This document shows, piece by piece, positions 11,916 through 59,839 of a stretch of 64,000 bases of DNA (positions within the stretch are counted from its first letter, which is position 1; each line of letters opens with the position of its first letter). This DNA comes from Marsupella aquatica. Lineage: Eukaryota; Plantae; Marchantiophyta. The notes beneath the pieces were generated by a model that did not search any database, was not told where the DNA came from, and saw only the letters and a list, made by a program, of their open reading frames with translations. A program made the position numbers and the translations under genes. Location of the stretch: contig OZ316891.1 in assembly GCA_973895155.1 (NCBI GenBank), positions 23,145,884 through 23,209,883 of the forward strand. The letters are read 5' to 3'.

Positions 11916-11996
11916 TATACCAATGACTCTACAATTATGACCGGTGTCTGGAATGACTATTGAGTATTTTAATCTTCATATCTCTTGGGTTCTTTA

Positions 11997-23654: not shown

Positions 23655-25225
23655 GGAGAACTTTGTGGCTCAAGAAAGTATTGATCTGACAAGTTGGTCA
23701 AGAGTTATATCTTCTTATTGTAGCAACTCTTGGGAAAATTAAGGTTCAATGTTGGCAGCCTAAAGATTTATTTCAAAAAGAGTTTCTTTGGCTGCCGCTG
23801 AGGAAGCTACTACCCTGAGCTTTCGGCCATTCTACTGGTCATGTTAAGTGATTTATTGAGGTCCGAGTACCGGTCGGATTGAGGACCTCCTGTCTCCCGT
23901 AGTGTATGAAGGAATAATGGCCCGAGCACAGATGTGCACCATAGGATACAGGTGAACTGCAAATTGCGCAAGAAGAAGTTGTGTGCAGCTTAAAACTGGG
24001 CATTGAAATGAACAGGTAGCCAGTTGAGTGACATTCTCTCTGGGAGGCCCGGAGGCCCGGAGGACAGAAGCTGACTGGTTGTTAGCTCGACTGAATATGG
24101 GAACCCGTGGTAAACAGGCTTCTAGCTTCTTAAAGTTCAGCAGTATGAACTGTACTAAACTTTCCTTGCTGAGAACTGGGGCTGATGTATTTAAAAAATT
24201 CTACGTTGTGGGACGGGGCCACTCTATTTACTCACGTTTTGTGTACAATTGCAACTTTGCAGCTTTGCAAAACGAGTCTGTTGTCTACACTGCGATAGGA
24301 TTGTTTTGTTTTAAACGTTCTTGTGGGATTGTTGGATAGGCTGACCCAGATGAACATGCTGGCAGGTTTTGCCCCAAGATCGAGCTGAATAGTAGAGATA
24401 GTTATTACTCCATGTTGCAATTTCTCCTAGATCGCCTTGGCTTCTCCAGGATGGCGTGCTAAGTATGAATCTGTAGATTGTACTTACAAAGGCTCTTAAT
24501 CAGGCTTTCTGTATTTTGCGATACACAAGTTCAAATTTCAATGACCAAGTGAAATGAGCTTCCCCTGCAAGTCTTGTTCATAGACTTAGCCTGTCTGTGG
24601 TTCCATCTCTTCTTGCTGTGGATGTTCGGTTCTTTACCGATGGATGAAGTTGTTGGATCGTGAATTTCTTTGTTTCATTTGCCGACTGTTTGCCGCAAGT
24701 ACATGGCCTCAAGTCTTAACTCACCAATTATTTACCGCGAAGTACATGCTCTCAACTACCTACACTCACATATTTTGTGTACCAAAAAATCTTTGATACT
24801 TGGGATGCGACTTCATTTCTTACATGTCGTTAACTCTGTACACTAATATTTGATCCCTTTGGTGGAAGTCATAAGACAGGCTAATATACCTAAGCTCCCC
24901 TAAATTAATAGAAATTGTTGTTTTCTAATTGCCAAATAATTGTATGAAGATTTCTCGGAGGTATAAGCTTGGAAACGTTTTCTGTGATCTCCAGACCTAA
25001 CTTTTCGCTCATAGATAAGTCCGAAGCTCACATGGGATCTCTGAAAATGATTCAAATGTAGTCCACTTTTGGTCATGAGGGCAGAAAAAGCTGTCAAGTA
25101 CCACACCTAGCTACCTTAATTCTCGATTGCCTTGCATGACCTACTTACATCAAATCAATTAATTCAACTCGGTTGACTTCACTGAATGGGCTTACTGAAT
25201 CCAATGAAGTGCTTTCAATGAATGG

Positions 25226-25357
25226 ACTGCATGGTATCAAGATGAAATTGTGGATGTGACATCAAATCACTACTGCATGGTATCAAGATGAAATTGTGAA
25301 TGTGACATCAAATCACAACTGCATTGTATCAAGATGAAATAGTGAATGTGATATCAA
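25226..25357. repeat. 46-bp tandem repeat, about 3 copies
   Basis: actgcatggtatcaagatgaaattgtg.atgtgacatcaaatcac starts at 25226, 25272 and 25318. Confidence 0.9.
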
Positions 25358-25856
25358 GACTTGTTGAGAGGAGAGGGGAGAAGAAATAGAGATAAAATCA
25401 AGAACCAGACAGAAACCATCTGCACGAAGTAGAGGACAAATATAAGTCGAGAGCAGTAGCGAGAATAAGGCTGGGATGAGGAATAAAATAGAAGTTTGTA
25501 GGAAGAGAAACTGGCACAGTAGGAGACTCGAATGTGGTGAAAAGAAACCGAGTTACCCATACAACAATGTATCAATCGATGCACTTCCAAGGAAACAGGC
25601 TCCGAAAGAACAGCACTGGTTGACGCATATAGAGAAGGACTGTGCGCGTTCTGGCATTTGAACGTACATCGACGTGTGAGGTACGCCTAGCGCTGGCAAC
25701 CAAACATTAAGCGTGATTCGCTACCTACAAAGAACACTGGCAAGAACCCATAGATTGCCTGAGGAGACGGTGCAGTTCGACCAAGGCGGTATCAAGCAGA
25801 GCTCGAGAGAAATAATTCGAGAGAAGCATTCATGAGCGCTTGAGCTCTGGCTGGCT

Positions 25857-27149
25857 ATGGTGGATCATCAGCACCAGAGCGAGGCGGCATCCTTGCCCCT
25901 TGCAGAGCCCGAGCCCCGGAAACCTAGCGCAAAGGCCTCGTTGTCGTGCCTTCCATGCATGGATGCACTGTGGTTCTGCTACTGTGAGCCTCCTCCATTC
26001 CAAAATTTATTTCCTTGCTTGTTTGCAACAGTCTTCGATGTGAAATTTGTTGCTGTCATGGATATAGCCGATATTATCGATTTGCGATCCATTTCTTTCT
26101 TCAAATTTAGGAAAGCTCGGTTTGGATTCTGTGTAGTAAGTAATCTTCCACAAAACTGTCCTCTCCTTCGTTTTGTGGGCTTCTCTTTGTTTTGAAATTC
26201 GTACCTCCGTAGAGCTGAACTCTCCCTCTGTCCTTCCGTACAGCAGTGGAATAGAATTTTTGATTCCGTGATCTTAAGAGCTCCTTTCCCGTTTTTACTG
26301 TTTGGACTTGCATCCTAGACCCTAAACTGTTACGTTTGTGTGGTCAAGTTTCAGCACTGTGTCGCTGCCTGTACTAAAACTCTTGCTCACTTTCGTAGAA
26401 TTACGTTAATGTACTAACTTGGAGTTGCACAGAATTTCGCCATATGTTTGATCTCCTTTTTTGCTTAACTCATGGAAATTACAGCTACGCACTTCTGCAT
26501 CTCTCTTGATTCCTTGCCAGTCTTAGGTCGAGGGGAATAGTTGTGGTGGTTACATCGAGGTCGTTTGAGATTCGAACTGTTGAATGTGTCCTCAAGGGGA
26601 ACTTTCTGTCTATTCTTTCTCAGCGTGTTGACATGGTGTGGGTTTGATTGAAGCTCCTGTTTACCAGATGAAGCAGTATTACAGGGATGGAACGTTTGAT
26701 AGCTGCGGTGGGAAGTGGGGCGATCTTTTCAACTGTATCTCCTTGAAGACTAAGTCTGCTGCAGACGTTGAGGTATTGCAATTTGCTTTTCAGATGATTT
26801 ATTGGATTGTTGTCAAGATCTTGCTCCCAACTCTGTCTAGCTTTGCCGTGGTTCACTGCTGTGTCTTACCCGAGCCAATCGTTCCCAAAGATTGGATCGA
26901 TAAGCACCCGCGCTGATTGTCTCCAAACAACTTCATACCCTTCTGAGTCTAGATCTATGTGCTTATTAGGCCCTCTTGAGATTTATATGATTTGCTCGCA
27001 TTCTTTATCAACGTGGCGTGGTAATGCTGGACCAGGCTATATTGAAGGAGCGGGGAGCAGCAAAGGAGAAAGAACATATTTGGAAATATAGGACAGAGGA
27101 GGAAGCAAGTGATCATTGGAAGCAGGAATTTGGACATTTACAGAAATGA
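25857..27149 (+). CDS. DUF3128 (Emi1/C22orf39-like) small twin-CX9C protein, 3 exons, 119 aa
   Basis: Exons 25857-25983, 26654-26772 and 27036-27149 (360 nt). Sequence: SCLPCMDALWFCYSPVYQMKQYYRDGTFDSCGGKWGDLFNCISLKTK..HIWKYRTEEEASDHWKQEF. Confidence 0.9.
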
Positions 27150-28424
27150 ATTGGCTGCGGATGTTCTGCAACCTGATTACCCAAACATAGGTAGGTCGTA
27201 GGCCCCCGACTGCTCATCAAGACAACTGCATACTTGAGGACGAGAAGTTTGCACATGAGGTTATTACAGGTGTATAGATCTCACCCTCATGATTTTCGAC
27301 CTTGAAATTTTGACACATGGACGAGGATAGATCCAGCCAGTGGCGAGGTGCATAGTTTTGCCGTGGCTGCAACATCGTTTCTATTCTTGCTAAACCACTG
27401 GTGTAAACATTCTGGACTCGGGTACGAGGCTCAGCATTTGTTGAAATAGATACCCCGTAAACAGTGGGTTAGTAAAAGAAGTGGATACAGAATGGGAATA
27501 TTGATGCTACAAGTTCATGTCCAATCTCTAGCCAACGAGAGCTCAGAGGTCCAAGCGTTTCAGTGATGTATTGCGCTGCCGAAAATCGCCAATTGTACTA
27601 GGGTCTTAATAAGTGTGGCTCTGTCTTATGATAAGCCAAGCAAGCAGAGGATTGTGGTGATAAGGGCGTTTACTTGAGCAGATCCATATAATTTGGATTA
27701 CTGGCTTTGTCAATGGCAAGTATAGTTGATGATGTGGTCAAAGTCTCTTGTGATTTCCCAGCCCTCGCGCCCATCATTCGAATCCCGTAAGTTGTCAATT
27801 TAGTTGTTGTCAATCCCGTAAGTTGTCAATCCCGTAAGTTGTCAACTTCGCGAGGATGAGCAATGTGAAGAATTCACGATGAGCGCATGCAGAGAACATA
27901 AGGAATAACAAGACCCATGGGCACAAATTTAGGCTTGCGAAATATCGGAGATGATAGACCTGTCTGCGATGGAAGAGATCACAGTCCTTACAGTCCTTAC
28001 TGCAGAAGCTTAGCTTTCCGAATGTTCTGTAGGATTTCCTCGAGAGCGAGAGCGCATGTACATTAATTTCCCCCCATAACGCCGGGCCAAATCCACCAGA
28101 CCGCATGGGCATTAAAACCAGCTTGTTTATAACAACCATGATCGAATACCAGCCATGCAAAAAAAACACCAGAGCAAATGGGCATCAAAACTAGCTTGTT
28201 TATGACAACCATGACCGAAATACCAATACAGACAGATCTTCGTGCAATAACTTACAGTTCATTTGACTGATCGGCAGAATGCTGGAGATGAATTCAGCTA
28301 TGTTCTCATCACAACAGTACATCACAACAGTACAGCAGAACGACAGTTGATCCAGATTGTTTGAGGCCATCCTGCTGAAAATTTGAAATGTCAATGCAAA
28401 GAGCATGTCAGGTTCATTTCACGA

Positions 28425-28580
28425 TGGCCATGAATTTCCAAGACCCAGAGAGAGATTCATGTAGATTTACGTACATCTTTGCATATACATAAATCACATC
28501 CTGGCCATGAATTTCCAAGACCCAGAGAGAGATTCATGTAGATTTACGTACATCTTTGCATATATATAAATCACATCCTG
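28425..28580. repeat. 77-bp tandem duplication
   Basis: tggccatgaatttccaagacccag...aatcacatcctg starts at 28425 and 28502, with one mismatch. Confidence 0.92.
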
Positions 28581-31500
28581 AGATGGTTCAGGTCTTATTG
28601 TTACTTATCGACTGTTTCATTGATTCTCTACCAACAGATACAGAGCATTGATCGATCATTCCCATACGCATATTGCAAGCAACGCATTCCATCCTCATAT
28701 GAAATCACATATAGATATGCAAAGATTTCTCACATGCCATGTACTCCTTGTAGATAACATTTATCTTCTAATACAAGCCTACAAACATATCGATAGACAA
28801 GCACCCTGTTGAATTTGGTTCAGGACCGGGTGTTGCTTGGTGACAGCATTACCCGAGTGTTGTGTTCACAGCACTGAGCATAGGCCGTATTCTTTTACCG
28901 GGAATGGACAGACTGTTTCCACTCACATATCCAGTGTCTTCATTCAGCCCCCGCCGAGATTATGCTATAGGAGACACAATTTCTAGTCCCATGTTTCTGG
29001 AGTGATGTCTAGATGGCTCTAGGGAGACATGGGCCAGAGATGAGTCATCCAGGCATACATTTTTTCTATTTCAGCAGTGTTCTAAATGTCATCCATTCAG
29101 TGAGAGACATCATTCATAGGTGAGTTATTAATCACAAAATGACATATGCTATGAACCTGATTTTGGTGCGTTCCCATAGAGTCACGATGTGCTGCCTGAT
29201 GGAGAGTCACTATTCCTCAATCCCTAGAGAGTCACTATTCCTCAATCCTTGGCTTGCTTTGCTCCAGTGTCCCACGATCTGCTTGGTCCCCCCAATCTGT
29301 CGTGTCAGTTGTTGTCTCTTCTTGGATTTAGAATGCTTTGCTCCAGTGTCCCTCGATTTGCTTGGTCCCTCCAGTCTGTCGTGTCAGTTGCTGTCTCATC
29401 TTGGATTTAGAATCGTTCCAGTGTTGGACGTGCTAGTGGTGGATTATGCTCATAAGGTGCTATGGCTGGATGGCTGCTGTTAGTAGCACTGATATCTTGG
29501 TGCTCACTTCAGGGTATCCCTCTATGATCTGTTTGGCATTGGACGTTCCAGATACCATTTGGGTAAATCAATGGCTCAGGTGGCCAGATATGTATAGTGG
29601 GAAGCTGCAATCACATTGCCCTTTCTTTTAAATACCTTAGTCAAGTTGTCCTTTCTTTTAATACGTTTTTGGAGTATGGGGCACAGTATACCTCTGTAGT
29701 GAAATATTGTGGCTCGTATTTGTCTTTTGTGTTACGAGAGGCCAGGCAGTATGAGTCGTATTTGTCTTTTGTGTTATGAGAGGCAATATGAGTCGTAAAT
29801 CCTGTCAGGAGAAGAGGTTACAGGTGTGTAACCATTTTTACAGGGGCCTGCTATAGTCATAATCTGGTGTCCTGAAAAGTTGAGTCGGTAACCTCTTTCC
29901 GGGCAAGAGTTAAGTACGCTAATGCAGGGCAGGGCTGGGGTTATAGGCTATAACCTGCTCCCAGAATATTCAAAGAAGCTTCCCGGCTGCCGCCGGTCAG
30001 TTTCTTTTCATATTCCGGACGCAGGGTTACAGCCTAGCAACCCTGCACCCAGACCTGCATTACCCTATACGTATTTGTCTTTTGTGTTCACTCGTACCCT
30101 CGATCTTTTGAGAGAGAGAGAGAGAGAGCAAAATATGGATTCCCCCGAGAAAAAGAGACGATAGTGATCTCGCTATAACGAAGGAGAGTAAAAGGCACTA
30201 CAAGTCACGTGCATGTCTCTTATACGAAGCAGTGAGTTCGAAAGAAGAGGGACGAAACGAATTTCGTGCGAGGTGGCGTGCTGGGTGCTTTGTGAATGTA
30301 AGACGGGCCGAATGACCTTCTAATAATGCCGCGTCGTGGTTCCAAAGCAGCATGCATCAGACAGCAAACCACAAAAAGTGATCTAGAGAATTGGAAGAGC
30401 TAGTGATCGAGAAACGGCTAACATGTGCTTCCTCGCCGAGATTTATAACAGACAAGTCTGCGTGGAACCCAGTTTGATCTTGGTTACCAAAGCAAGAATC
30501 GGATGGCTTGTGAAGAAGGCGTACCTCCCACCGTCGATGTACGTTCAAATGCCAGAATGCGCACTGGTTAGTCCTTCTGTATTTGCCGTAACAGAGTCAT
30601 CGGGGATTGTTCGCCAGGTAGCTCCAAAATTTAACCAGTGCTCTGTTCTTGCGGAGCTTGTTGTGTTGGAAGCGCCTCGATTGCTACATTGTTATCATTC
30701 GCTCGGTTTCTTCTCAACACAATTAGAGTCAATACTGTGTTGTTGTCGTTCTTACAAAATTCGATTTTGTTTCTCAGCCTTCATTTATTCTCGCTTCAAC
30801 TCTCGACTTATTTTTGTTCTCGACTTTATTCTCAAGCTTTCCATTATTGCTTTTTGTCTGGATCTTGATTTCATCTCAATTTCTTCTCCTCTTAACAGCA
30901 AGTCTTGATGGTACATTCTCGATTTCATCTTGATGCAATGCAGTCGATACATTGAAAGTAGATGATTTTTCATTCAGTAGATCCATTGTCAATCGATTTG
31001 ATTGAAGTAGGTCCATACAAGGCAATCGATAATCAAGTAGGTAGCTGTGTTAGGATTTGAAACCGTCTATATTTTCGTTCTGCTCCGGTAATTAAGCAAT
31101 GACACCAATTCCTTTGGATCCTGCACGCCACCGCTATCTGTAAACCAAGTTCAGGGTTTAGGGTTGTCCAATTTCTTCAAGCTTCAGGCATGTCTCGAGA
31201 AAATAAGCAACAATGATGAAATTCAACACCCCCAAAATTCAGAAATTTCAATGAGAACTTTCAATGTTGCACGTGGCCTTTGATCTCTATGGAGAATTGT
31301 GAAGCTGAAAGATGAACACAAGCACATTTCTCCTCCTTGGAACATACTTATATTGATCTCCACACAACGTCCCAGACCTTTATGGAATCCCCGAGCAGGT
31401 CAATGTGATTGATTCCTTGTGCTTGCACATGCTTGATCGATTGCTTGTTTTACTCATTCACGCACACAATGAATTTTGCAGTACTGCTTCAACATTCTGC

Positions 31501-39900: not shown

Positions 39901-42124
39901 CATGAGGTCCAAAGTGAACGTCAACAAGGTGGGCAAATGCATCTTCTTCAAGGACAGGGTCATCTCCCTCATCTCCCTCATCTCCCTCATCGTCAACATC
40001 ATCATCCAACTCTCCATCATCATCCAACTCTCCATCATATGCATCATGGTACTCCTCATCCTCATCGTCCATCTCATCATGGTCAAGGGGCTGACCCTCA
40101 GCATCCTCCTCGTCTGAGAAATGTAAGGTGGCACGTACGTGAAAGGCACGGGCTGATGTAGTCATCATTGATGGGTGAGGTGTGGGAGTAATATGTACAC
40201 CATCCTAGAGTTTTCAATATGCAATGACAAATAACAATTAGAGAAAGGGTTTATGTGATAAAGCTTACAGTGAAACATCAATAATGAAAAATGCAAGGGT
40301 CACCCCATAATGAATATGTCATGTACACATGTAAACATCAATGCCAATCATAATCTACGAGAATCTCTTCCCCTGCTCTAATGGTGCGGGTAGCATGTGT
40401 CAAGATGTAATGCGTGCATGCTACAGGCAAACGAGGGTGACTCTGGTCATGGACTCGGGGGGATCAGTATATGAAGGGTCATACATCACGTGCGACGGTT
40501 TGGGTCATTTATGACCCCCCTAAGTCACTTTCTAGAAAGTTGTACGACACCAATCATGTGATGACACGTATGCATTTTGCAATTAAACAACCCTATATTT
40601 CCATAGAAGACTTAATAAGTCTTCCGCCAAAACCATTTAAATGGCCCTATACTTCGTCGCACATGATATGCCACTTCCATGGAAGTGACCCCCTCGAGGT
40701 CATGGAACTCGTGCCACTCAGCATTTGGCCTAAACCCTGAACGCCGAGAACCAATAGTGCTATTGATGTAACCCGCCAAGTTCCCCGTGCAAGGTGGGTA
40801 ACCATCAATTGAGCATACCTAGGGTCCAACTTTAGTGACATGCCATATCGACTAAAGGTTGGGCACTGTCGGGACAAGATGCGCCATCTTGCCGCCGAAT
40901 ACTTGGGCCCATAGAATGGAAACAACTGAGGCAAATCATCGGGTGCACAACCGGTAGGGACCACGATATCCACAAGAGCAAATACTCCAAGTCCTACATG
41001 AGTCCCCAATGTGGAGGGGAGGATGACCCATGGGCGGTCCCAAACTATAATAGGCTCCCGAAGCGGGAGGTCCATAGGGAGTCCAAACTGGGCTGGGAAG
41101 GAGTCCTTTAAGATGTCCAAGGCTCTCCCTCGCAACTGTCTCGGTGCCCGGGACACGGATGCATCAAGCAAAGGGCATTGGGGCGGAACAATCCTAGGTG
41201 GACGGGACTCAATCGATCGGGGTCTAGTGGTCACCACTACTCCCCTCTCAATAGGGTGCATCCTAAACACTCTCCTCCTCCTCCGAAATACACGGTCTAT
41301 CTCCCTCAATGTGGCTGGCAAATCGGATGGATGGACGAGTGGTGCGAGTGCACGATATGCAATGTCTCTCAAGCGGTCCACAGGCGAAGATCGCACTACA
41401 ACAGGAATCTGTTCCACATGTTCACCAAAACAAGTTCAGAATATGACAATCAAAAAACAATTCAAGGAAGGAGATGTTATCATAATTGCAATACCCAACA
41501 AAATTGTATTACCTCTCGGGTCGGGGGGGTGTAACGACCATGGATCCCTAAATGGCTAAGGACAGTGGTCCTCTCGTGTAAGACAACACCCTTGCATCGT
41601 CTGCAAGGGCAAGGCATCTTGCAAATTGGCCCAATCCCCTGAAGAGCAGCCATGGCCTCTCCAAATCCATCAGCATGATGGGGGCTCCGGCCTCTCCTAC
41701 CGTCGGAACCATGTCTGCATCGACGACGCCTGGATCGGTGACGCCTAGATCGATCATACATGTCTGGTGAGTAATCTCTCTCCCGGTCCGATAGGTCGTC
41801 CCTCCCCCTATGATGATGGTCATCTCTGCGTCGGGTGTAAGTACCCCCACCATGGTCCTCATAGGATGAGTCATCCCTCCTCCTCCCTCCCTCGTCATCC
41901 CTCCTCCTCTGCCGCTCATCATTGCTCCTATAGCCCGATGAAGCTGAACTCCCCTTATGCCGATGATGGTGTCTATGTTGGTGAGAACTACCGCCATGCT
42001 CATTGTCATCGTCACACGAGTCATCCCTTTGCCTATCCGACTCATCATACGTCCCCCTATGATGATGATGGTATCTGTGCCGATGATGCCTGCCCCCATC
42101 ATGGTCCAATGCATAGGTTGCCAT
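36962..42124 (-). CDS. CACTA TnpD transposase no. 1 (transposase-associated domain + Transposase_21 + DUF4218); C-terminal DUF4216 exon not found
   Basis: Predicted exons 42124-41513, 40204-39798, 39657-39351, 39051-38547, 38444-38131, 38030-37603 and 37447-36962, all GT-AG and in frame. Motifs: CPCRRCKG..VLSHLGIHG, RNVRLGLAIDG, CTTDGPG, CPSC, LDPMHIE, LKSHDYH, LHLLCHL, WMYWVER. Confidence 0.85.
40338..41408 (-). pseudogene. SET-domain (protein lysine methyltransferase-like) exon nested in the first intron of TnpD no. 1; one frameshift plus a MITE insertion
   Basis: VILPSTLGTHVGLGVFALVDI..LFPFYGPKY..YGMSL, then a frameshift at about 40812, IDGYPPCTGNLAGYINS..PNAEWHEFHD, the MITE, and QSHPRLPVACTHYILTHATRTIRAGEEILVDYDWH* (stop 40338-40340). 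The GxG, YxG, YIN and EExxxDY SET motifs are all present. Confidence 0.88.
40454..40698. mobile_element. 245-bp non-autonomous TIR element (MITE) with an 8-bp TSD
   Basis: TSD gtcatgga at 40446-40453 and 40699-40706. TIRs ctcggggggatca and tgaccccctcgag. Removing it restores the SET reading frame. Confidence 0.9.
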
Positions 42125-42539
42125 GTCCCCTGTGATCAAATTTACAAAGGCCCCCACAACATATTAAACCCCAAGCATAAACGTATCCCGCTACGTTAAC
42201 CAAACTAACGTCCATCCACACGACGTTCCCCTAAACTTAACGTCGTTTTTTAGGTTGTGGGGAGGTTGCCGAATTTAGTTTACGTAATAATGTACGACGT
42301 ACTTAATAAGTTAACGTCGTTAGGTATGACGTAATTATATGTAACGTCGCCGCTAAACCCTACACTCCTGGTTAACGTTGTGATTAATGACGTTAAATTA
42401 GGGTAACGGCGGGTCTCCAAGGTTTGTGGGCTACGGCTGTTTTCCTTTAACAAAACATCGGGAAGTGACTTGAATGTGACTCACATTCAACATTCAACAC
42501 TTCCCCTCTCCCCCTCTCGACCTCCTATCTTAACAGTGA

Positions 42540-44883
<2,344 letters not shown>

Positions 44884-45499
44884 GGTATACCATGCATGAC
44901 TATGTGGACGTCCACCTGCATTTTGTACATTTTTGGCACAAACTTTTGACGCCACCCATTTATAGTGGCATTCCGGACTTCATATGTCTATTTTATGTGT
45001 ATTCCGTGTGTATATGAACCTAAACCTAAAGCCCACCCAACTAAGGTAGCCTGGAAGGATGTTCCATACAAGATTAATGTTTACCACAAACGGCACTCCA
45101 TTCACGTCTCTCCATTCTTGGTACTATTTTCAAACGTTCTCGTTAACACCATTTTTACCAAGCCTCACACGACTAACTACTCATACGTCTTGGACAGACT
45201 CATCATTAACAAAGTCACAAACTACGTAATCTGAAATTAACATCGTTTTAAACGATGTTATCAGCTGATTTCCCTGTTCAATCTGCGTCCAGAATAATGT
45301 CTTTATTTACGATGTTAATATGTAACGTAGTATGGACTGACGTATGTAACGTAGTTTTGGACGATGTAAACTGTAACCTTTGTTACTTCGTACAAAACGT
45401 GCCGTCATTCACGTCGAGTATGTCGCCTTTCTTTAGCAGCAAGGAGACGTCGGGCTTAACGTCTTCATGTAACACGTAAAAAGTCCTGATAATGTAGTT

Positions 45500-48400
45500 G
45501 TGTCAAGTGACAGTGGAAGCAACAACCCTGATCGCAATCTACCTAGAACATATGAACAGGTTATTGATGACCAAGATAGAGCCATGGATGATTTTATGGT
45601 TGATTGGTTTGGTGTTGATGTCCCTGGTGATGACGCTGAGGTGTCTGCTGATCAAGGAGGTCATGTGCCCCCCAATGATCCATGACCAAGACATACCCCC
45701 AAGGGACAGCGCCAATGGGAGGAAGCAGAGGAACATGCCCGAACTCCTATCTATGAGGGTGCTCGTTTGAGTCATCTTTCTGCTATCTTGGGGTTGATGA
45801 ATCTACAGGCCAAACACAAGGCAAGCAATGCCTTGTTATCTGATATGTTTGCACTTTGCCATGACCTTATGTTACCTTCTGGCAATGTGTTGCCAGGAAC
45901 TTGGAAGGAGGCCAAGCGTGTTCTCTCATCAATTGGCATGGAATATCATATCATTCATGCATGTGTGAATGATTGCATGTTATTTCATGGGGCCGATGAG
46001 AAGAAGACATAGTGTACTGAATGTCATGAGCCACGGTATGACCCCAACATGATTACAAAGAAGGTGCCAAGAAAAGCTGTTCGTTGGTTTCCCATCATTC
46101 CTCGGTTGTTGCACATGTACAGGTGTTCTGATTTGGCAGAGTTGATGGTATGGCATAAGACTCATCGATCAGAGCCTGGTGTTATGCGGTTGCCAATTGA
46201 CTCTCCTGCAGTCAAACATATTGAGGAAACATGGCCAGACTTTGCACATGATCCTCGTCATGTGAGGTTGGGATTGGCATCTGATGGGGTTAGTCCTCAT
46301 GCCCTTGGAGGCAAGGGAAGACCTACATCAGTTTGGCCTGTGGTTGTTATGAATTACAACCTTCCACCATGGCTATCCATGAAGAAGGGGTTCCTCTTGC
46401 TGTCTTTGATTATTCCAGGTCCAAAAAAGGTGAAGAACTTTGACACTTATTTGGCACTATTGATTGGAGAACTCCAAAAACTGTGGGGTGGAGTGTGGGC
46501 ATATGATGGCAGGAAAAATACATGAGGCATTCCACGTGTATTTAAATTGAGAGGGGTAGTTTGTTGGACAATGCATGACTATCCTGGTAAGATGACTTTT
46601 TGACCATATGCCACCCTTCTTTGATATGCTCTTTAATATACTTGTTTGTCATGTGACAACCCTAACATTTAGTCTGGTTTTATTTTTGGTGTAACCAGGG
46701 TTTGGCTTTGTCTCTGGATTGCAAACTCAGGGGTACAAAGCTTGCTCCACCTGTGGTCCACAATTGCAAGATATGGCAATTTGGTCCCCATGGCTTAGGA
46801 AGATTGTTTACATTGGGCATACAAAGTTTCTTCCGATGGGGCATGAGATGAGGTCTGACCCACTTTTATTTTCCTCCTTTGACATGCCCCTTGGTGATAT
46901 GCGGGAAATTCCGGAACCAACAACTTTTGGGCATTGGAAGTCACTAGCTGATAGGGTGGCAGACCCTGATGATCCCCTCACCTTTGATGGTACTGGGTTG
47001 ACGAGGTGGAGTATACTAGCCAGTTTGCCCTATTGGTCAGAGTTGAAGATCCGCCATCTTTTAGACCCCATGCACATAGAGGGAAATGTGGGGAAGGCGT
47101 TGATAGCTCATTTTTTATGGGGAGAAGGACACTAACTTCAGGGAGGCATGTGAAGAGTTGGAAATGCATCCAGATGTATGGGTACAAGTTGATCCTGCCA
47201 CAGGTTTGGAACATCGTCCTTCTACTCCTTGGGTGCTTAGTGTTGGCCAAAGACGTGAATTCCGGAATCGTATAGGGGAGATGCGGTTTCCTACAGGCTA
47301 TGGTGCCAATTTGAGGAAAGCTTTTGGGATGGAGGACAATCACAAATGGCCACGGTATCTCAAGACACATGACTATCACCGCTTATTGCAGCATATATTG
47401 CCAGTGGCAATTATAGGGTTGGGGACCAAAGAAGTGCAAGATGCCATTTGGTCATTGGGTCGTTTGTTGAGATGGATATGCTCAAAGGAGATATATGTGG
47501 AAGAGATTCCTAGAATGGAGGTATTGGCTGCTGAGGTGGTTTGCAAGTTGGAGAAGGCCCTCCCTCCTTCCTTCTTTGATTGTCAGGTTCATTTACTTGT
47601 GCATCTTGTGAGGGAGGTTGCCATTGCTGGTCCAGTTCATTGTCGATGGATGTACTGGCTTGAGCGTTACATGTCAGTCTTGAAGGCTTATGTACGTAAT
47701 CGTGCACGAGTGGAGGGAAGCATAGCTACAGGATACTTGGCTGCAGAGAGCATGTTTTATTGTAGTAACATCTTGGCCACCATTGATCGGACTTTACCAC
47801 GTACTTGGATGGAGGAGAGGCAAGAGGAGGAGGACCGTTTAACAGGAGCAACAAAAACATGCATGCTTACATCAACAGAGTGGACACAGTTGAATACATT
47901 CATGTTGAGTAATAGCAATGTCATGGATGAATGGAGGGAGTTTTATGACAATGCCAAAAGAATGAGTCAAAGGGCAAGGATTTTTCCTAAGTTGCATGAG
48001 TTTATGAAGGAAAAGTTGGTTGAGTTGGATTGCATTTTGGCACAAGGAGGAGATGTCTCACAGTTTCCTACTATGACAAATGACATTCGGACCATTGTTC
48101 ATGGCCCTTTGAGAGTGGTAACATCCAAGACGGCCATGTGGACCCAAGGGAGACACTTCAGGTTTCACTAGTTCCTAACCTTGTTTTCCATATTGATGTA
48201 CTACTACTTAAGATATAGTAATCATTTTACTTAAGATAAGTGTGTTTTTCTCTTTTGGTATGAAAGGTTCCTCATAACATGATTAGTGTTTTTTGTGTAG
48301 TAGTAACAATATATGGGTCTTGTTAATTTCAGGATTTCTTCCCTTGATGAGAAGAGGCTCGTACTTTTGATTGTGGAGTTCAAGGGCAGTTTTGTCAGGA

Positions 48401-49491
48401 CTCCCGGAGTAGCCGACATGATAGGAACATTGTTCGTGATGTTGTGCCACACTATGGGAAGATAGAGGAGATTTTGGTGGTCTCATATGACAACCAATCT
48501 AAGTTTGAGGAGTCCTTGGGCCCCCAGCCTTTGTAAACTAAAGAGGTATACGTGCGTACACCCCCCTCCCTAGTACCCCTTATTATTTTTGGAAGCCTAT
48601 AAAAAATTTTCTTGTTATTCTTAAAAACTTAATTTTGGAGAATAAATCTGCCCCTTTGAGATATTATAATTTCACATTTTACACCATTTATGAAAGCCTT
48701 GAAAAGTTATAAACTCATCATGTGCAAACGGTTCTAAAACTGACGGGAGTGTTTTGGAAGGGTTTTGGGTACATACATTTTTGTTTTCGTGACCCTTTAA
48801 CCCCAAACTTCAACTTTGGGGCATTTTTGAACCACAGGGCAGGGTAGTCAGGGTTCAAAAGCTCCAAAGTCCTAAACTACTCTGAATCATAGATGTTGCA
48901 AGCATAATTATATGTCATATACACATGTTCCAATAAAGGGTGACCACAAGGACCAATCCTATTGTGACGCGTGTCACATCCATATTACATCACCTCTTGA
49001 AGCATATTAACTTGGGTCACATTTATATAAGCCTATATTAGTTAGAAAGGGTTCTTTGAATAAAAACATCCCTTGATATTTTTAAGTCAATTATAAAAAT
49101 TAATCTCAAATCAGATTTTTTGCACCCTTCATCCGTTCGCACGTCCAGCCCATTATTAATAATGCTGGGGGCCCAGGGTGAGGAGTATGTCTTCAAGTGC
49201 AAGTGGTTCAAAGTGAACCTTGTTGGTAATAATCGCACTGTACTCCAAGATGAGAGTGGGTTTACACGGTTGAGGACAAGTGCCACTAGTTTTCAAGCAT
49301 CTCATTGGCAAACGTCAGAGCCATTTACTTTCCCATCTCACTTGGAGCAATGTTTCTACGTTCCATACCCCTTAGACCCAGAGTGGTCACTTGTCATCAC
49401 ATATGTGCCACGGTCTCATTCCATTGTTTCAGACAAGCCAGACACTATTTTTGTGTCAGATGTAGAGGACATTGAAGGTGACCAAGTGTGA
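45500..49491 (+). pseudogene. CACTA TnpD transposase no. 2 (Transposase_21 + DUF4218 + DUF4216), disrupted
   Basis: Motifs: RHVRLGLASDG, WTMHDYPG, CSTC, LDPMHIE, LKTHDYH, VHLLVHL, WMYWLER, HYGKIEEI, FKCKWF. Introns 46587-46698 and 48162-48332. Stops at 45683, 46010 and 46523, frameshifts at about 47115 and 48357, and a MITE at 48514. Confidence 0.93.
48514..49178. mobile_element. 665-bp non-autonomous TIR element with an 8-bp TSD
   Basis: TSD tgaggagt at 48506-48513 and 49179-49186. TIRs ccttgggcccccagc and gctgggggcccaggg (14/15 match). Excision restores ..NQSKFEEYVFKCKW... Confidence 0.93.
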
Positions 49492-50408: not shown

Positions 50409-52180
50409 CCACATGATAGTTTGAATCCACTCCGAATAGAGTTTTGTGAAAAAAATGGAGGCTTTACACCGTGCCAGGAAATAGGAGATTTTTTTACTGA
50501 TACGAGCAAAAACTTTCCTCATATCAGGAGAGTTTTCCTGTTATCAGCAATGTTTTTACTCACATCAGGAAAAACATTCAAGGAATTGTCATCCTCCGTA
50601 CTGTTGTGAGCAACACCAATTAAAAAACATTCAAAAAATTCCATGAAAAGTGGAGTGCCAAGTCTCTCGAACCACTTGAAAATGTTCAAAACCAATTAAA
50701 AACAAAATGGGGCACCTCCCTAACCTCAAAAGGAAGATTTTGAGGAAAATATGTAAATAATACTAGTGCCAGGCGCTATCAATGACTCAACCCTATTTTA
50801 CGAAACCAAACATTGTCTAATACATTCATTCTCAATAAGCTTCTGTATATGATAATGCTGTTGGAAAACGACAAAGTACTGACCATTGGAACGTTAACTA
50901 CATAATAGACACCTCTTTAAATACTACCCTAAACTTTGTCGTTCCAACAAGAGACGTATTTCTCCAACGGTGAGTATAGGCTGACTCGACAACGTTGATT
51001 CTCGAAGGTCCAGTTTGAAAACATTCTTATAAATCCAATACAGATGTTTGCAAGGCAGGAAGGGTTTGCAGTGGGCATGACGACGATAGAAATCTTTGCA
51101 AGAACAGCACGGGAAGCAGCAAATCTGAACCCAATAGGCAATGATAGAGTGGTGACCAATGTGTGTTTGGATGCAAAATTGTTTGCCCCATCCATTTCCT
51201 GTCGCAACATCCCTTGAACAGATTATTTTCATTTCTTCTTTATCAGCTGCCTCAATCTTCTTATAGTGCGATTTAGTTAGATGCACTCTCTGTAGGCACG
51301 TCCTCCCGTTTCGAGATAAACAGCGAATTGTCGACTGAAGCAGATTGATCCTTTCCGGGAAAACATTGACATCGATTTGAAGATCTAGTCCACTTGGTGC
51401 ATTTCTTACACGATCACCTTCACCTCCGATCGATATTCCGTTGCCCTTCAGAAACTCTACCTCCGCAGTAGAAAGATTTGTAGTCAATGCAATGGGCAAG
51501 TGATCACAAGGTGGTGGAACATTCACCACACCTTTTCGAGGACGACTTTTGTAAAAAACATTATTCGGACAGAACCAGATCAGTTCTGGATGTGGTTCCC
51601 CTCTGAAAATTTGCGCTGCTCGAACTGCGATACCAACGACTCCGTTTGACGTCCGGTAGCCTACTTTCTTCAATCGATTTCTACATTCGTCACGATCTCC
51701 ATGTCCGCCAAGGGATCCATTGCAGACTGGGCCAGCACCATGCTTCGAAGTTCTCCTAATATGCCATGCTCCAGAAGGAACATTGGACTCCAACACGGAT
51801 GGGGTTACTTCTTCAATAACATGGACTGGGGTCGTGACTGGAGTTGCAGATGACCTCGTCTCCATCGGAGGAGGAGGTGTCCGCTCTTCAAGACTAGCTG
51901 AGGCATCGCTCTCTGAACTATTGACGACTACACTCTCTTGGGGACCTGGTTCAGAAGGAATCGCAGAGAATTCCGTTCTATTGAGATTTCTTCTCTTCAA
52001 ACCTCGGGTGTTTGGGGTCGTAATGAGGATAGTGTCATGCCTGTGGGAGTCTTGCGCAGAGACATTTCCAGTAGCATGTCCCTTCCTCTTTATTGACCGG
52101 GTCTGTACATCCCCGCTCAGGGGTCTCACTATATGGGGACCTCCCCATCACCTGCGACGTTTTTAGGCCTCGGACCCCAT

Positions 52181-52411
52181 AAAATGCAAGAAAAAATTAT
52201 TATTTTTTAACCCCTATAAAGTTGGAATATTCTTGGAATATTCCAAAAATTGGATTAAAACGGCCCTAATGTTCTTATAAGTCTCAAAATTGAATTTAAA
52301 GACCCTATTGTTCTTCTACAAAAATTCTTAAGTCTTCCCTTACAACCAATAAAATGACCCTATCCTTCGTCGCACGTGATATGCCATTTTTGTGGAAGTG
52401 AAACCCCCGAG
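52181..52411. mobile_element. MITE fragment related to the 40454-40698 element
   Basis: About 120 bp of similarity: aatgaccctatccttcgtcgcacgtgatatgcca..ggaagtgaaacccccgag versus aatggccctatacttcgtcgcacatgatatgcca..ggaagtgaccccctcgag. The left TIR and TSD are not evident. Confidence 0.7.
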
Positions 52412-52778
52412 CATCCCCGTTCAAAGGGGAATTCCTTTCCAAATCGAATTCAGCCGCATTGGAAAGGAAAAGGTTTGAAGCTTCTTCAAACAACCTTGGG
52501 GAACCCGCTAGATCTGCAGAGCGAAAAGCCAGCTCAAACACAGTTGGGCCATTCCCTCTGTTCAATCCTCTCTTGTAAGCCGTATAGGCTGCAATTTGAG
52601 AGATCGCTCTATTCTGGTCGGTTTCACACCCTTCAAAGACTCCAACCTTCTTCTTCAATTGCCAGGCAATCATTGACGCGTGAGACGACTCAGATCCACC
52701 ACAATTTGGAATCATTGCCGCTTCCTCTGCACTCTTGCTCTGCAGAATTCACCGACAAGGTTAGATTTAGGACTTGAA

Positions 52779-52931
52779 TAGCGCCAGGCGCTAGCCAATG
52801 AACATATAGAAATAATAGCAGATATGATCAATTTGAACCTGTATGAGTAGCGCCAGGCGCTAGCCAATGAACACATAGAAACAATAGCATATGTAATCAC
52901 TTTGAACATGTATGAGTAGCGCCAGGCTCTG
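52779..52931. repeat. 69-bp intronic tandem repeat, each unit carrying the 15-bp palindrome
   Basis: tagcgccagg starts at 52779, 52848 and 52917, inside intron 52740-52956. Confidence 0.92.
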
Positions 52932-55109
52932 ACCAACGATTGTTTTGAATACTTACCAATCAAATAAAGTTTCCCCATTGGCGCCATCGGACAACCCACC
53001 ATGAAATCCAACCTTGCAACATTCGTAATTTACCAGGATAACAATTCCCTGCCCTCCACCATGAATCATTTCTCTAGAAATACGATATGCCTTGATAAAT
53101 GACTTTGCATTCCGCAACCTATCCCATAGGGCACGATGTTCACTCTGCTTTCCCTCAGGAATGCCTTCAATTGAGTGTCTCCGAAATGACTGAAAGAAGT
53201 GAAATGCATCTGATCGCTCACGTTCGGGATGAGGAAGTCCCCCAAAGAACACATTCCTCACAGCATTCCAACCAGCTTGAGCATTGTCCGCCATAAAACC
53301 ATGAATGTGGACATCGTGAAGACCGTTCTCATCAGCCACCTCCAACATTAAACGCCAAGACCTCTCAAGGGATTTTGTATCTTCTGCTTGCAACTCGCAA
53401 GTGAATATCGTGCAAAGTGCACGATAGTTATGGTCATAAACATGTACACTAAATGTAAGCCAATCCTTTGTCATTTGGTGCATCACATCAAAACTTACCC
53501 ACGAACCCTCAAGAGGCCCTCCGGGACTCATCTTTCAAAGAAGGTCCAGACCATAGCCTTCACCCTTAGTGGACATCTTGAAAATATGTGCACTCTCATC
53601 TCTAGACCCTTGTCCCGGCAACAAGAACCTTTGCAGAAATGGGAATGAAATGTTCTTCTGCATGCTTACCAGAAATTCCAATTCACCTCTGCCTTTCTGG
53701 TCTTGACGGATACTCCTCAGAAGGTTCACAAATTTCTGAGGCGTTGAGATGACTTGAAGAGATTCAAAAATCTTGGTCTCTTCTATTGGGATCATGTCTT
53801 GAACTGACGACTCACACATTGCCTTAAAAAGAGACGAGGTGACGGTGTTCTTCATACCCACCGCAGTTGCACGCGGATTCAAAGTCAAACCTTGTTCCAT
53901 GTGCATCTTTGCAACTTTTTCTGCCTCTCTTGAAAAAACTTGCTTGCTCGGATGGTTATGATGTCCGATGTGAATGGCAAGCCGCGACATATGCTTAGCA
54001 GACTCGGCATCAACTTTGGAAGATGCGTACATGTAGAACATCATCGCTGGACAGAGCTCAACACAAAATGGGCGCTCCCAACAATAATGACAGACAATCC
54101 CACCCTCAGGAATGAGTTGCCCGACTACGTGTGGTCCAGAAATCTTAGGAACTCTTTCCCAGAACTTTGCATTCCTCCTTTTATGTTCTGCACAGAACTG
54201 ACATGAATTGTTACGACATTCCAGAGAACCCGTGCAAAAGACTTTTCCAAAATCCCACACCTTTTTTGGGAGAACATTTGCGGAAGTCGTAACAATCCGA
54301 GTCCAATAGTAGCAGTCCTTGCCGCGATCCATGTCCCGGAGGCGTTCACCTTTTGAGCAAACTCCAACAACTGGAGGCAGTTTGAAAACAATATTCCCAT
54401 TGTACGTGCCAGGCAAGCTTGATACTTGCTCAAATCGGTAATCATTCCTTTGCATGAATCTTGAGATCTCACTCTGGGCTTTTGATTGAAGAATCGTATC
54501 AAGAGCACTCCTTCGGTACACAACTGAATTGGTCGTCCGCCCATGGACCGTCTCCACTTTGACGTTGTTTTGAGGAAGATGAAACTTTGCCAAATCTTCA
54601 TCATCGCTACTATCTGAAAGGTCAATCAAATTGACTTTCAGCTTCCCCTTTGAGGAGGATGGCACCTCAAATTTTCCCAAACTAACAATGTCATACTTCA
54701 CCCCACCGCACAACCTCCAATACCAAACTCCTCCAATGAAATAAACATCAACCACCACTTCCTCTCTCGAGATAACTATTCGTTGTATGCTTTCCCTGGG
54801 AATTCCAAACCTGGTGGCAAGATATTCCTCAGAAACTTCATCATTTTTCTTAGGAGCGGCGAGCAGGATTGCCACGAGGTCACCAGGCGGACAGCGAGAA
54901 ATTACAATTCGCGAGTCCATTGGAAATGGCGTACAGAAATGTAAGGCCACCTAAATTCATTTGTGCTGAATAAAACCGTTACGAATATGACAAAGTGACC
55001 TATTAGCAATGAATGCTTGTCGTATTCTAACGGAATTACACATGTCAGCACCTACCAAGAAAATCTTATTGATCAAAATTTGAACATAAATTTCAAGGCA
55101 CACAAATAA

Positions 55110-55637
55110 TAGCGCCTGGCGCTAAGTAAGGGAGATGAAAACTTGAGGCTCCATATGCACATATTGATGGATGGTTTGCCAAGAATCATCTCAGATGACA
55201 AGATTGTATCGAGTACACCTTTGATAGCGCCAGGCGCTAGCAAATATGTATCATGCATATCTGGTCCGTAACGATAACTCCCAAAGCTAGATTACGTGCG
55301 CTATCAAAGTTGTACTCTATAATCAAACGGTAACTTTAAAGGGTAATCAGGTTAATGTTTATTAGCGCCCGACGCTAGTAAAGTATTCGAAAAGAAATGT
55401 TATGTTCTTGAAGGAATATTATCTTCCGTGTTATATATGAGAGGATAAAGAGACAAGAACGACATCTCCCTATGATAGCGCCAGGCGCTAACAAAACTTA
55501 GAGTGAAGTTTTGAAGGGTCTAGACTGCCAATTTTTACTAGCGCCTGGCGCTAGTAAAAACTTATATGCTAAATATGATGTTCATGTTAGATTCAAGGAA
55601 CCTTCACAACGGACAACAATGATAGCGTCGGGCGCTA
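55110..55637. promoter_or_regulatory. Cluster of six TAGCGCCWGGCGCTA-type palindromes between the divergent transposase and ParB-MTase genes
   Basis: Copies at 55110, 55225, 55363, 55476, 55539 and 55623. A regulatory or binding role is inferred. Confidence 0.6.
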
Positions 55638-56047
55638 TCTAATAACGACTCGCTATTCAATGGTAACTTCAACGGACATTTTAGTCGATTCGAGTATAAT
55701 ATTTATGGAAGTAGCAGGTCCACGATAACTTAAACGGATACCTCTTTACGAACTATGAGGTCTACTGGTCAGTCCCAGATTTAATCAACGGTGCATTTCG
55801 CTCCAGGTGTCCAACGTCCCCCGACTCACATGCCGCCAGAAGTCCAGTCATCGTACATTTAGGGTACTTTGCTTCCTTTGGAATTGTTCCTGCTGAGGCA
55901 GATTCTTCTCATTTGCGTTGGTGTCATTGAGGGATGCGTGTAAGGAGAATCCGCACGATTAAGCGTACGAACTCCCAAACAAAATCCCGTATGAAACAAA
56001 ATTGAACGGCAAAAATCTCCGCATCGCAGTTGAGAGAGTATATCAAA

Positions 56048-59000
56048 ATGGGGTGTGGGTCGCCAAACCATTCCCAGTCCTCAGAGTCATCGTATTCCAG
56101 TTGTGTTTCAAGTCGAAGAGTAACTCGTTCCATAGCGCAGTATCCTCTCAGTCAAGTTGAGCTTCCCTGTCCAAAACCGAGGCTATTGAAAATGGAACAT
56201 GTTGGTGAGTTTGCCGTTCAGAATGTCGATGACATTGAGAAATTGGTGGTCGATGTCATTGAAAAGCACGTGATGTCATTTGGAGTTGATGCGAATGGGT
56301 TACCAAAGGAGCCTCCAAGAATTCCTTTATGTTGTCTCGTTCACATGGAGGTTGTGCGCACTCTTCAGAGGAACAGTCAATCGATTGAGAAGCTGAAGGA
56401 CTCGTTCCGGACATCTGGATACAATTCGTCCATTGGCATGCGCTTTTTTGTTCAACCATCCAACGCTGAAGGTAATCCTCAGATTTGTACAGATGAAATT
56501 CGCGGTACTTGGGATCCTCTTTGGATCATGGAGAACGACTTGTTCGAAGCGGAATGTGAATCAGACCCCGCTTTCCACGTCCTCAAGGACAAAATGTTCT
56601 ATGTTTTTGATGGAAATCATCGGTTGTTTTCGTGGACTCAAGTCACAAACGAGAGTCCAGAGAATCCTAAGTATCATCCTCGCGTGCAATGCACAATTTT
56701 CAAAGGAGAGAAGGCATCAATCATCGAGATTGAGGCAGCGATGCATATTGTTAACCAGTGAGTTTTCTTTCACCACCGACTAGTCTTCTCAAATTTTATT
56801 GTTTCCCTTCGACAATTTCTCTCTTTTTCAGATTGTATTGTTAGGTTAGCGCCAGGCGCTATTTCTAATGTCCTCAATTGCACAGGACGGGACAGGCAGT
56901 GGTAGAGTCTTCTTGGATTTTGGATGCGGACAGAATTAGGAGGATTTTGGCTCATGATCTGGAGTACTACAAACCCATAATTGATGAGGCAAATTATGCA
57001 AAATTCGAGAAGACCAGGAAAGAAACCCGAAAGGGTTCTTGGTTTACCAAGAAGATGCCGATGGAGGCGTTGGTATACATCTTGTGTGAAAACAAGATCA
57101 AATTGTACTCGCAGCAATTTCAGGTGATGAAGAACCAGGCGAGCAGTTCCGACGCTCCATGGTCGGTCGAAGAGACAAATCTTTGTCACAGTCAGATGAT
57201 GAAGGAAGCCACTAAGGAGTGGATTGTGAAAACTCCAAAGCTCACTTCCTTGCTGAGCCCAGAGTTTGAAGATTTCATGGACACTTGTGCTGAGATGTAT
57301 TGTCTTACAGATCGACTCAAACGTGAAAAGGTACCTGAAGCTGTATTCTGCACCATGGATAGAGCTCGCTTGTTCACTGCCAATTTGGCATTAGATCCAA
57401 AATTGCAAAGTACATTGCTTGTTGCACATTGTACTCCCGAGTTAAGGAAACAGTTTTTCCATCCGCTCGGAGTATCGGACGACCCCGTGAAGTAGTGGTG
57501 CCACACCTGGCATGTTTGGAACACAATTGAGGGGATGGCAACTGCTCTCCTCGAGGCATGTTTGAAGGAGGCTATGGGTTCATGCACCGAACAACGTCTT
57601 ACAACACTCGGTGGAGAACTGATTCCCTTTGAGAAGTTGAAGGCTTTGATTGTAGATGATTTTAGAAAGTATGGGGATTCCGTAAGGGCCAAGTTTTTCA
57701 ACACTATTTGGGAGTCCAAGTACGCTGACAAGGAGGATTTGAGTGAAGTTAACCGCAAGAGAGCCAAGAGATATTTGTATCGATACTATGTGAAAATGGA
57801 GAGGAGTGACCCGGGCTATTTCTGGGCTTATCCTGGTGCCTTCCAGAAATGGGCCGTTGTGAATATGAGGTCCGAAGTGTCTGGAGACTTTCTTGGGTAC
57901 ACCATGTACCCACCGGAGGGAAAATTTCCCCCAAGGAAAATGGCAAAGTGGGAGGTTGTGCATTGTCTGTGGTATCTTGACACAGACAAGTGGAATTCAC
58001 CGTTTGATGAGATAGAGAAAGATGCTTTTCACAAGTTATCAAAGAATTTGGAGCCCAGAAACATTTTGTCAAAGATGAAGCAGGGAATTGATGCCAAGAT
58101 TGATCTCTCGGCGATAGAGCTCCAACGGATTTGTGAGACGCAAGTCGTCCAAGTTGCAAGGAGTCGAAAACCAAGAGCAAAACCCAAGCAAGAAACAACC
58201 CCAAGTGGATCTAAAAAAGAGACCAAAAAAGTGAGTTCCTAATTTGGTAGCTTCAAATCTTCGTAATTTTCAGTCTTCTATATTGCTAGCGCCAGGAGCT
58301 GTTATTAATATAACAATTTCTCTAGCAGGATCTCGGAAATCAGATGCGGGGTTGGTGTCGGGTAATGCTTTGACTGCAACTCCGGAGCCTTCTCGTGACA
58401 ACAGTCTTGGGAAGGATGAGGATCGACCAGAGGGGTCGGAGACCCCGAAAGATGTGAGTGCTCCGCCAGTGGATGCCACCAGCACTAGGAAGAAGAAGAA
58501 ACGTCACGTTTCTACTTCCGGTGGGTCTCATAGGGAAACGCTTGCGGCGACTGGTTTACAGAGGAATGTGGGGGACTTCAAGGGAAATAAAACCAGGCAC
58601 ACATTCGTGGAGTCTACCTTGGCAGAGTTCTACGATAGTGTGTTTCAAAAGGAAGAGAAGCCATCTTGGGTTTCTCAGGTAGAAACCTGGGGAAAGAATC
58701 TTGTGAAGTCGGGTTCTCGATCAAAGGGGGTTATTAGAGGTGGAAAAGTTAGGACATTTGGTGTGGATGCAGGATTTCTGTATTTGCCTACCGGATTGAG
58801 CCATCACTTTTGGACAAGAAAGTCCCGAAATGGAATGTGCAAGACCACTCTCTCCCTGGGGCTTTCTTTAGCGCAATGGACCCTTTCCTATCGGACGACG
58901 GAGTTCTGGCTATTCTTCACACTGGAGAATATGACCAGATTTTGGAAGTGATATCTGCATGCTAGCAGTCGCAAAAGTTTGACTGTATTGCATCGTATAC

Positions 59001-59765
59001 AGTTGTCATGGGGTTTCCTATGTACAAACCTAAGTCTGACACTCAAGTAATTAATGTCATTCATTTTGGCCAGCGCCAGGCGCTAATCTTGTATCTCTTT
59101 AATTTTGGCCAGCGCCAGGCGCTAATCTGTGTCTTTTTGTTTCATGGTCTTACTATTCTATTGTTTTGTAGATCTTCACGCTGCGGTTGGATATATTCTG
59201 TCGGGGTTTGCGAAAATCAACAATACCGAAAGATCCCAAGTTCCATCCATTGTTGCCTTCCGAAGATCCTTCAATTACAAATCTGATCGGATTTCCGTCT
59301 TTAAAGTTGGATCCAATACCAGAACTTGTGGCTTGTGGAAACGGGAGGCTCACAGTTGGTTTTATGCAGTCTGTTATAGAGATCATCTCTTGTCTAGGGG
59401 ATATTGTGATCGACTGGACCTGTTGCTCAAGAAGTTCATTCGTGGCGGGAGACTATTGTGGTAGATTTGTTGTTGGGGTGGAAGGGCGAACAGAGTTTGT
59501 CACGGCTTCAACGTTTACCTTAGCTGACCTTTTGGAGCCAAAGTCAGCTTTGACTCCAGAGAAGAGATTGTCAAGGAAAGGGAAAGAGAAGTTGGACAGA
59601 GTACGATCAATTTTGAACTTTGATTCCGAAGAGAGCGAGCCGGATGTTGCTGGGGAATCTGATGAAGAAGAGATTCCAGTTGTCAATCTAGGAGACGATG
59701 AGGCAGAGAAAAGAAATCCCTCGAGATCAAAAAGTGATTCCGAGGATGAGGAGTCTTCTGAGTAA
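56048..59765 (+). pseudogene. ParB/Srx-like N-terminal domain fused to a degenerate beta-class N4/N6 DNA-methyltransferase-like domain; 4 exons
   Basis: Exons 56048-56758, 56886-58230, about 58329-59046, and 59172-59765. ParB-like: IPLCCL..VVRTL..SIEKLKDSF..GY..MFYVFDGNHRLFSW. MTase-like: VDAGFLYLPTG (motif IV position), FLSDDGVLAIL, and FMQSVIEIISCLGDIVIDWTCCSRSSFVAGDYCGRFVVGVE (motifs X-I-II). Stops at 57493 and 58963; frameshift at about 58800. Confidence 0.72.
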
Positions 59766-59839
59766 TGCTCGTAAGCTCACTCCAAATGTACGACTGTTTT
59801 TAGCAACATATTTTTGGTAAACTTAGTGTTTGTTTTAAT

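Follow-up and report, generated by a model that had tools for sequence, protein, structure and literature searches.

The CACTA elements maize En/Spm and Arabidopsis EnSpm3 produce two proteins, TnpA and TnpD, by alternative splicing, according to the accessible text of three reports (PMC13547354, 10.64898/2026.08.24.746577 and PMC4158355). TnpA acts as an anti-silencing regulator in both, as given in the accessible accounts of these elements. SET-domain genes are known from other DNA transposons, i.e., HarbingerS and MuDR of Phytophthora (accessible part of PMC12730594) and the Helentrons and a proto-Helentron, the SET of the latter being similar to Clr4 (accessible part of PMC4067079). Within the EnSpm superfamily, Plavaka PAG2 of red algae is a separate gene in which an N6-adenine methylase is fused to a SET domain (accessible part of 10.1101/2025.02.11.637652). 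In bryophytes, transposon silencing relies on H3K27me3 or on methylation of H3K9, in the accessible text of 10.1101/2022.10.24.513474.

Here we analyzed 64,000 nucleotides of the liverwort Marsupella aquatica (assembly GCA_973895155.1, contig OZ316891.1, positions 23,145,884 to 23,209,883; hereafter, the window, to which all coordinates refer). On the minus strand it holds a CACTA TnpD gene with a SET-domain exon (41408-40338) between exon 1 and exon 2 (40204). As in En/Spm and EnSpm3, the transposase gene of this CACTA is predicted, as likely, to yield another product from the same pre-mRNA. Unlike in En/Spm, that product would have a SET fold instead of being the DNA-binding TnpA, and the gene in the TnpA position is separate and divergent, so the comparison with maize Spm made in the first-pass annotation of this sequence is a loose one. 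As in HarbingerS, MuDR and Helentrons, a DNA transposon carries a SET methyltransferase-like gene; the SETs of those elements, as far as the accessible text describes them, are accessory ORFs in other superfamilies and hosts, whereas here the SET is an exon within the transposase gene and, unlike the Clr4-like SET of proto-Helentron, prefers no host class. The locus shares with Plavaka PAG2 a SET domain in a CACTA-superfamily element and is set apart from it, by description, in that the SET lies in a TnpD intron; no methylase domain was found with Pfam in the SET family members scanned. Transposon-borne SETs and Spm-type alternative splicing are both known, and a SET exon inside a plant CACTA transposase intron appears to be new. 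A literature search whose coverage stopped short of Repbase reports and subscription journals found no plant CACTA with a SET exon or intron gene, and there is no mention of a CACTA SET exon in the accessible text of liverwort genome papers or of PMC11982613.

We propose, at a probability of about two in three, that a pre-mRNA with a shared finger exon is spliced either to a near acceptor, giving a predicted lysine methyltransferase of finger-linker-SET layout, or to a far acceptor, giving the transposase. The CACTA lineage with a SET exon in transposase intron 1 is likely one of bryophytes.

Organization of the element

Exon 1 (41513..42124, minus strand) comprises 612 nt, i.e., 204 codons in phase 0, and GTAATA, with a phase-0 GT donor, follows directly, in agreement with the first-pass annotation. 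It encodes an Arg/His/Asp/Ser-rich low-complexity region and then a CxCxxC-x13-H-x3-H finger resembling a truncated PF13963. The end of exon 1 had been assigned to a transposase-associated domain; the finger is there, but the match to PF13963 is weak and below the cut-off (E = 0.0016; 19 bits against 27.7). TnpD exons 2-7 (40204-39798, 39657-39351, 39051-38547, 38444-38131, 38030-37603 and 37447-36962, minus strand) are all bounded by GT-AG; joined to exon 1, they can be read through for 1,019 codons with no stop. PF02992 (E = 6e-39) and PF13960 (E = 2e-30) are found in the downstream exons, i.e., CACTA/EnSpm TnpD domains are present, and the transposase body proposed to begin at 40204 is borne out. 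CPSC and HLLCH were spotted by eye in the spliced TnpD translation, and the catalytic residues were likewise assigned by eye. In another TnpD of the window, which has no SET, a finger and the transposase share one frame (3764-1833), which indicates that the finger is normally the transposase's and that exon 1 should also reach the far acceptor.

A divergent second gene occupies the TnpA position on the plus strand (42546..44883; exons 42546-43735, 44037-44153 and 44245-44883). It had no Pfam match, and its best atlas score (0.85) is not credible. A cluster of ACGT-rich repeats between the two genes (42170..42420; 47.8 ACGT per kb versus 2.4 window-wide) is likely the promoter region. Further ACGT-rich repeats are subterminal (45140..45499) and adjoin the sole preserved end of the element, which sits within a different CACTA, in its TnpD. 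CACTA elements are characterized by CACTA...TAGTG termini and a 3-bp target duplication (accessible text of PMC4158355). The end preserved at 45499 is AACTAC, which differs from CACTAC by a single base; the opposite end is missing, the element being truncated near 36843, hence there is no target duplication to compare. Because of the degenerate end and the truncation, this copy of the element is dead.

The SET exon is disrupted in this copy and intact in sister copies

The 5' part of the SET exon (40699..41408, minus strand) encodes a helix and a linker and then the SET core, with GxG at 40994 and Asn at 40764, and the 3' part (40338..40445, minus strand) carries the terminal Tyr codon (40352-40350) and the stop (40340-40338). 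Between them lies a 245-bp MITE (40454..40698) with inverted ends, flanked by an 8-bp target duplication (40706-40699 and 40453-40446), and the reading frame is regained once it is taken out. This interruption was correctly recognized in the first-pass annotation, as was a frameshift, which is the loss of one base at 40810/40809 and not at about 40812. When the intact relative P0001 was aligned to the window, it fell into three blocks (59, 62 and 82% identity, the last over the final SET block) with boundaries exactly at the frameshift and the MITE.

Four public runs consisting of contigs (X2, X3, X5 and X6) were compared with the window at an 80% identity cut-off, and the uninterrupted copies that had been suggested as a check were found. 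An additional base at 40809 is present in other copies at a depth of 1623/1669 in X3, 30.7/30.7 in X5 and 397/607 in X2, this site being without coverage in X6. Contigs of X2, X3 and X5 also skip 253 nt, i.e., the MITE and one duplication. Both SET lesions are specific to this copy and the sister copies are intact; the SET protein cannot be made by this copy, in which the SET exon is dead. A frameshift in the second gene, near 43238, is likewise not in other copies. As to the MITE itself, its bin is much deeper than neighboring bins in all four runs, and a partial relative (76%) lies at 52293-52411.

In contigs of a diverged sister family, the SET core has 45 differences in 318 nt with zero gaps, a TnpD exon has 46 in 323, and the introns, the spacer (40207-40336) and the linker fall under the 80% cut-off. 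That the SET core is kept like the TnpD exons while introns diverged points to coding constraint, read as a pattern and not as a dN/dS figure.

The SET family and its predicted activity

A profile search returned a SET family of 97 clusters at 50% identity (58 with E < 1e-10), the named members coming from two liverworts, Riccia sorocarpa and Calypogeia fissa. All three intact relatives searched matched PF00856, two of them above the cut-off; among three pieces of the window only the last matched (E = 0.0012, under the cut-off). Conserved positions in a 62-row alignment include the GxG glycines (52/56 and 56/57), Asn (54/62), a second Asn (60/60) and the terminal Tyr (49/53), and GxG, Asn and the C-terminal Tyr are all present in the SET exon of the window. 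The His that canonically follows the Asn is Ser in 58/65 members, and the family motif, GYINS-x(n)-PN, differs in this from the full RFINHxCxPN (PMC3980110). The first-pass annotation had described a complete minimal SET: the domain is real, but within the exon its folded part comes after a helix and linker of about 90 codons. A Cys-rich pre-SET or post-SET, which that annotation gave as missing, is found in none of the 46 complete members, and the family is in this respect outside the host classes SUV39/SUVH, ASH1 and TRX. The likeness to minimal viral or bacterial SETs, also suggested, extends to the missing Cys clusters alone.

The predicted structure of the intact relative P0005 (mean pLDDT 82.5) resembles Set1 and SET8 (Z 12.5, rmsd 2.3-2.6, ~123 aligned). 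H3K4, H4K20, H3K27, H3K36 and non-histone enzymes were tied among its matches (Z 11.3-12.5, 14-23% identity), so no substrate can be read from the model. As in LegAS4/RomA, SETD8, SET7/9 and giant-virus SETs, the SET fold lacks Cys-rich flanks; unlike in LegAS4/RomA there are no ankyrin repeats, and an identity of 15-23% shows neither origin nor substrate. LegAS4 is the best solved sequence match (E = 2e-7) and is also without the His, yet it is active and methylates H3K14 (accessible part of PMC10653858), and the change of His to Ser in the family does not imply inactivity. In the atlas, the top cluster was a streptophyte SET cluster (0.97) and the third a giant-virus cluster (0.96). Two queries of viral contigs gave nothing, phage records gave no match, and the single locus from a metagenome scan (L001) was rejected as a chance match to a short motif. 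We conclude that the evidence supports a genuine SET domain that is conserved, belongs to the element and is nested in TnpD intron 1, and the motifs suggest that the protein is likely an active methyltransferase. Two divergent members from Calypogeia fissa, P0044 and P0104, have a different Cys/His-rich N-terminus, which suggests that this SET is found elsewhere too, in a different element or in domesticated form.

If made, the enzyme may methylate histones at copies of the element itself or in their vicinity, with an effect more likely to counter silencing than to impose it, and the common finger may guide it to the transposase or the element. We hold the histone marking and the finger tethering with far less certainty than the splicing. 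That the SET protein would mark histones against silencing is guessed from the analogy to TnpA and to VANC of VANDAL Mutator, an element-encoded anti-silencing accessory protein (in its accessible description) that is proposed here as a functional parallel and is no SET enzyme. There is a sizeable chance, a little short of even, that the protein is made and is no histone anti-silencer, i.e., that it acts on a non-histone target such as the transposase, sets a repressive mark or is an inactive binder. The tie between histone and non-histone enzymes in the structural matches, the lack of a reader domain flanking the SET and the replacement of His by Ser are consistent with these roles, whereas, given the H3K14 activity of LegAS4 without the same His, the replacement need not mean inactivity. 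All of them are compatible with the splicing model and compete with its final step only.

Evidence on the proposed splicing of the SET exon to exon 1

Two phase-0 acceptors downstream of exon 1 were confirmed, i.e., CAG directly before 41408 (acceptor 1) and TAG directly before 40204 (acceptor 2). They rank first and second among the 31 YAG sites of the intron by U/A-richness, an ad hoc measure, and 41408 opens the longest frame of all these sites. A 104-nt intron-like segment (41409..41512, minus strand; T 0.43) ends at acceptor 1 and a 133-nt U-rich spacer (40205..40337, minus strand) ends at acceptor 2; the GC content is 0.32 in both, as in introns, versus 0.54 in the SET exon, which is exon-like and resembles exon 1. 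The spacer has two TGTA, CATAAA at 40255 and CTAAT at 40241, and an exact AATAAA is absent from it; it is a possible 3' end of the SET message.

An island of 24-27 nt centered on acceptor 1 (~41395-41421) is kept in diverged copies from three runs while both sides diverge; as a set of short matches at the 80% cut-off it has moderate weight. Residues 13-46, upstream of the first ATG of the exon, show conservation, with E = 4e-4 where the best value from 200 shuffles was 0.009. Four relatives open with an intron-like stretch ending in Gln (early Gln 6/48 versus 1/179 later), as expected from read-through of a phase-0 CAG. Among the 15 joints listed, of 73 in the four contig runs, none was a clean splice. 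From these features of the sequence, the SET exon is predicted to be most plausibly joined to exon 1.

Proteins with a finger and then a SET comprise three Riccia models and a single ORF (P0018) on a 2,141-bp Logan contig, which may be a transcript or intron-less DNA. The Riccia gene models combine cDNA and ab initio evidence (accessible text of PMC11735767), so these fusions are no proof. Ten of the 115 family proteins, chosen by eye, have a whole or partial finger ahead of the SET, and the exon 1 end matches 3/115 at E of about 2e-4 or better. With a profile built from six finger relatives, the window left out, exon 1 was the sole pick (E = 6.9e-6) out of 1,679 six-frame pieces, the runner-up scoring 0.24, and the finger of the SET-less TnpD scored E = 1.2. 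In the predicted model of P0018 the finger region (about 71-110) is a helix-hairpin-helix with pLDDT 84-96, followed by a long low-confidence linker, the SET part being poor with 12 sequences only. A fold search with this finger reached Z 2.9 at best and returned zinc fingers in 9/18 rows, a lead only. TnpD sequence continues after the SET in 5/115 family proteins (P0061, P0090, P0043, P0079 and P0080), and the order finger, SET, TnpD in distant relatives indicates that the layout is old.

The SET frame could instead be a gene apart, nested in the intron, that starts at codon 13 or at the ATG at 41261 and is driven by a promoter within exon 1 or within the short intron, leaving exon 1 to the transposase. 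Some Arabidopsis EnSpm families use separate genes for their two proteins (accessible text of PMC13547354). Counting against the splicing model, 105/115 family proteins have no finger, and P0044 has its different N-terminus. A midpoint-rooted tree was built from the 48 rows, out of 116, that have both end motifs. It places the window in a clade of 18 rows, the others of which have no finger, and the finger-bearing rows in a sister clade of 22 rows, both clades being well supported. Most of the finger-less proteins look to us like single-exon calls or fragments. P0005, P0106 and P0107 have their initial Met in the alignment column of codon 13; this codon, however, is TTG in this copy, and gene callers often print Met for non-ATG starts such as TTG. 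The conservation of acceptor 1 and of residues before the first ATG, and the single ORF of P0018, which spans both finger and SET, also speak against a separate gene, which we regard as unlikely.

A cassette exon is improbable to a greater degree. Here a donor at a Val codon (GT at 40358), in phase 0 like acceptor 2, would join the SET to exon 2 and yield a finger-SET-transposase without the terminal Tyr, which would bind and not methylate. P0025, P0043 and P0079 do join a Tyr-less SET to a start resembling TnpD exon 2, although such joins are probably typical of gene predictors. The terminal Tyr is kept in the large majority of members and most complete ones stop a few residues later, which would be needless if this end were skipped. 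Finally, CACTA elements are reported to capture and splice host fragments, and the frameshift and MITE of this copy would suit such a fragment in neutral decay within the intron, but this explanation is largely refuted and barely credible given the intact SET of sister copies, the 97 clusters with conserved active-site residues, a core 101/147 identical to P0005 versus 15/37 in the N-terminal helix, and the same position in Riccia models.

Other features of the window

Cys/His-rich frames at 4338-5010 (minus strand) match an NSD-like PHD finger (PF23004, E = 1.7e-5) and lie ~570 nt upstream of the SET-less, intron-poor CACTA TnpD (3764-579), and the two may represent a second CACTA lineage with a chromatin-reader gene. 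This TnpD contains a perfect, in-frame tandem duplication of 135 nt (1392-1661). A third CACTA TnpD (45500-49488, plus strand), which the end of the SET element directly adjoins, is decayed, misses its 5' part and is seemingly split by a further insertion at about 48520-49130. Many copies of a 14-nt near-palindromic motif occur in both orientations in 50924-61330, together with long ORFs (53535-54950, 52953-53534 and 56006-59765) without a clear Pfam match, and this region looks like another DNA transposon. Tandem arrays occupy 8720-11920 (period about 578 nt) and 11978-12517 (period about 83 nt), and long imperfect inverted repeats ~5.5 kb apart lie at 25115-31037.

Discussion

In the splicing model that we prefer, one transcript would start in the repeat-rich region 42170-42420, and the choice between acceptor 1 (41408) and acceptor 2 (40204) would determine whether a finger-linker-SET protein or the TnpD transposase is made, with the SET message ending in, or reading through, the 133-nt spacer. 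A bolder version, which we hold as doubtful, is that an old bryophyte CACTA makes its own histone lysine methyltransferase, tethered by the finger, that each active copy would write an anti-silencing mark, and that the choice of acceptor would decide whether the element opens its own chromatin or jumps.

Catalogues of transposon SET genes exist for oomycetes and red algae, and the accessible text of those reports describes no tested activity. Transposon-written histone marks become directly testable with this land-plant family, which has numerous intact copies, sequenced liverwort relatives and a small, well-folding domain. Such SET genes are hidden in repeat-masked introns and misannotated fusion models. 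The predicted layout would couple the output of enzyme and transposase via one splice choice and, if true, an enzyme that counteracts silencing would open a further front in the conflict of host and transposon.
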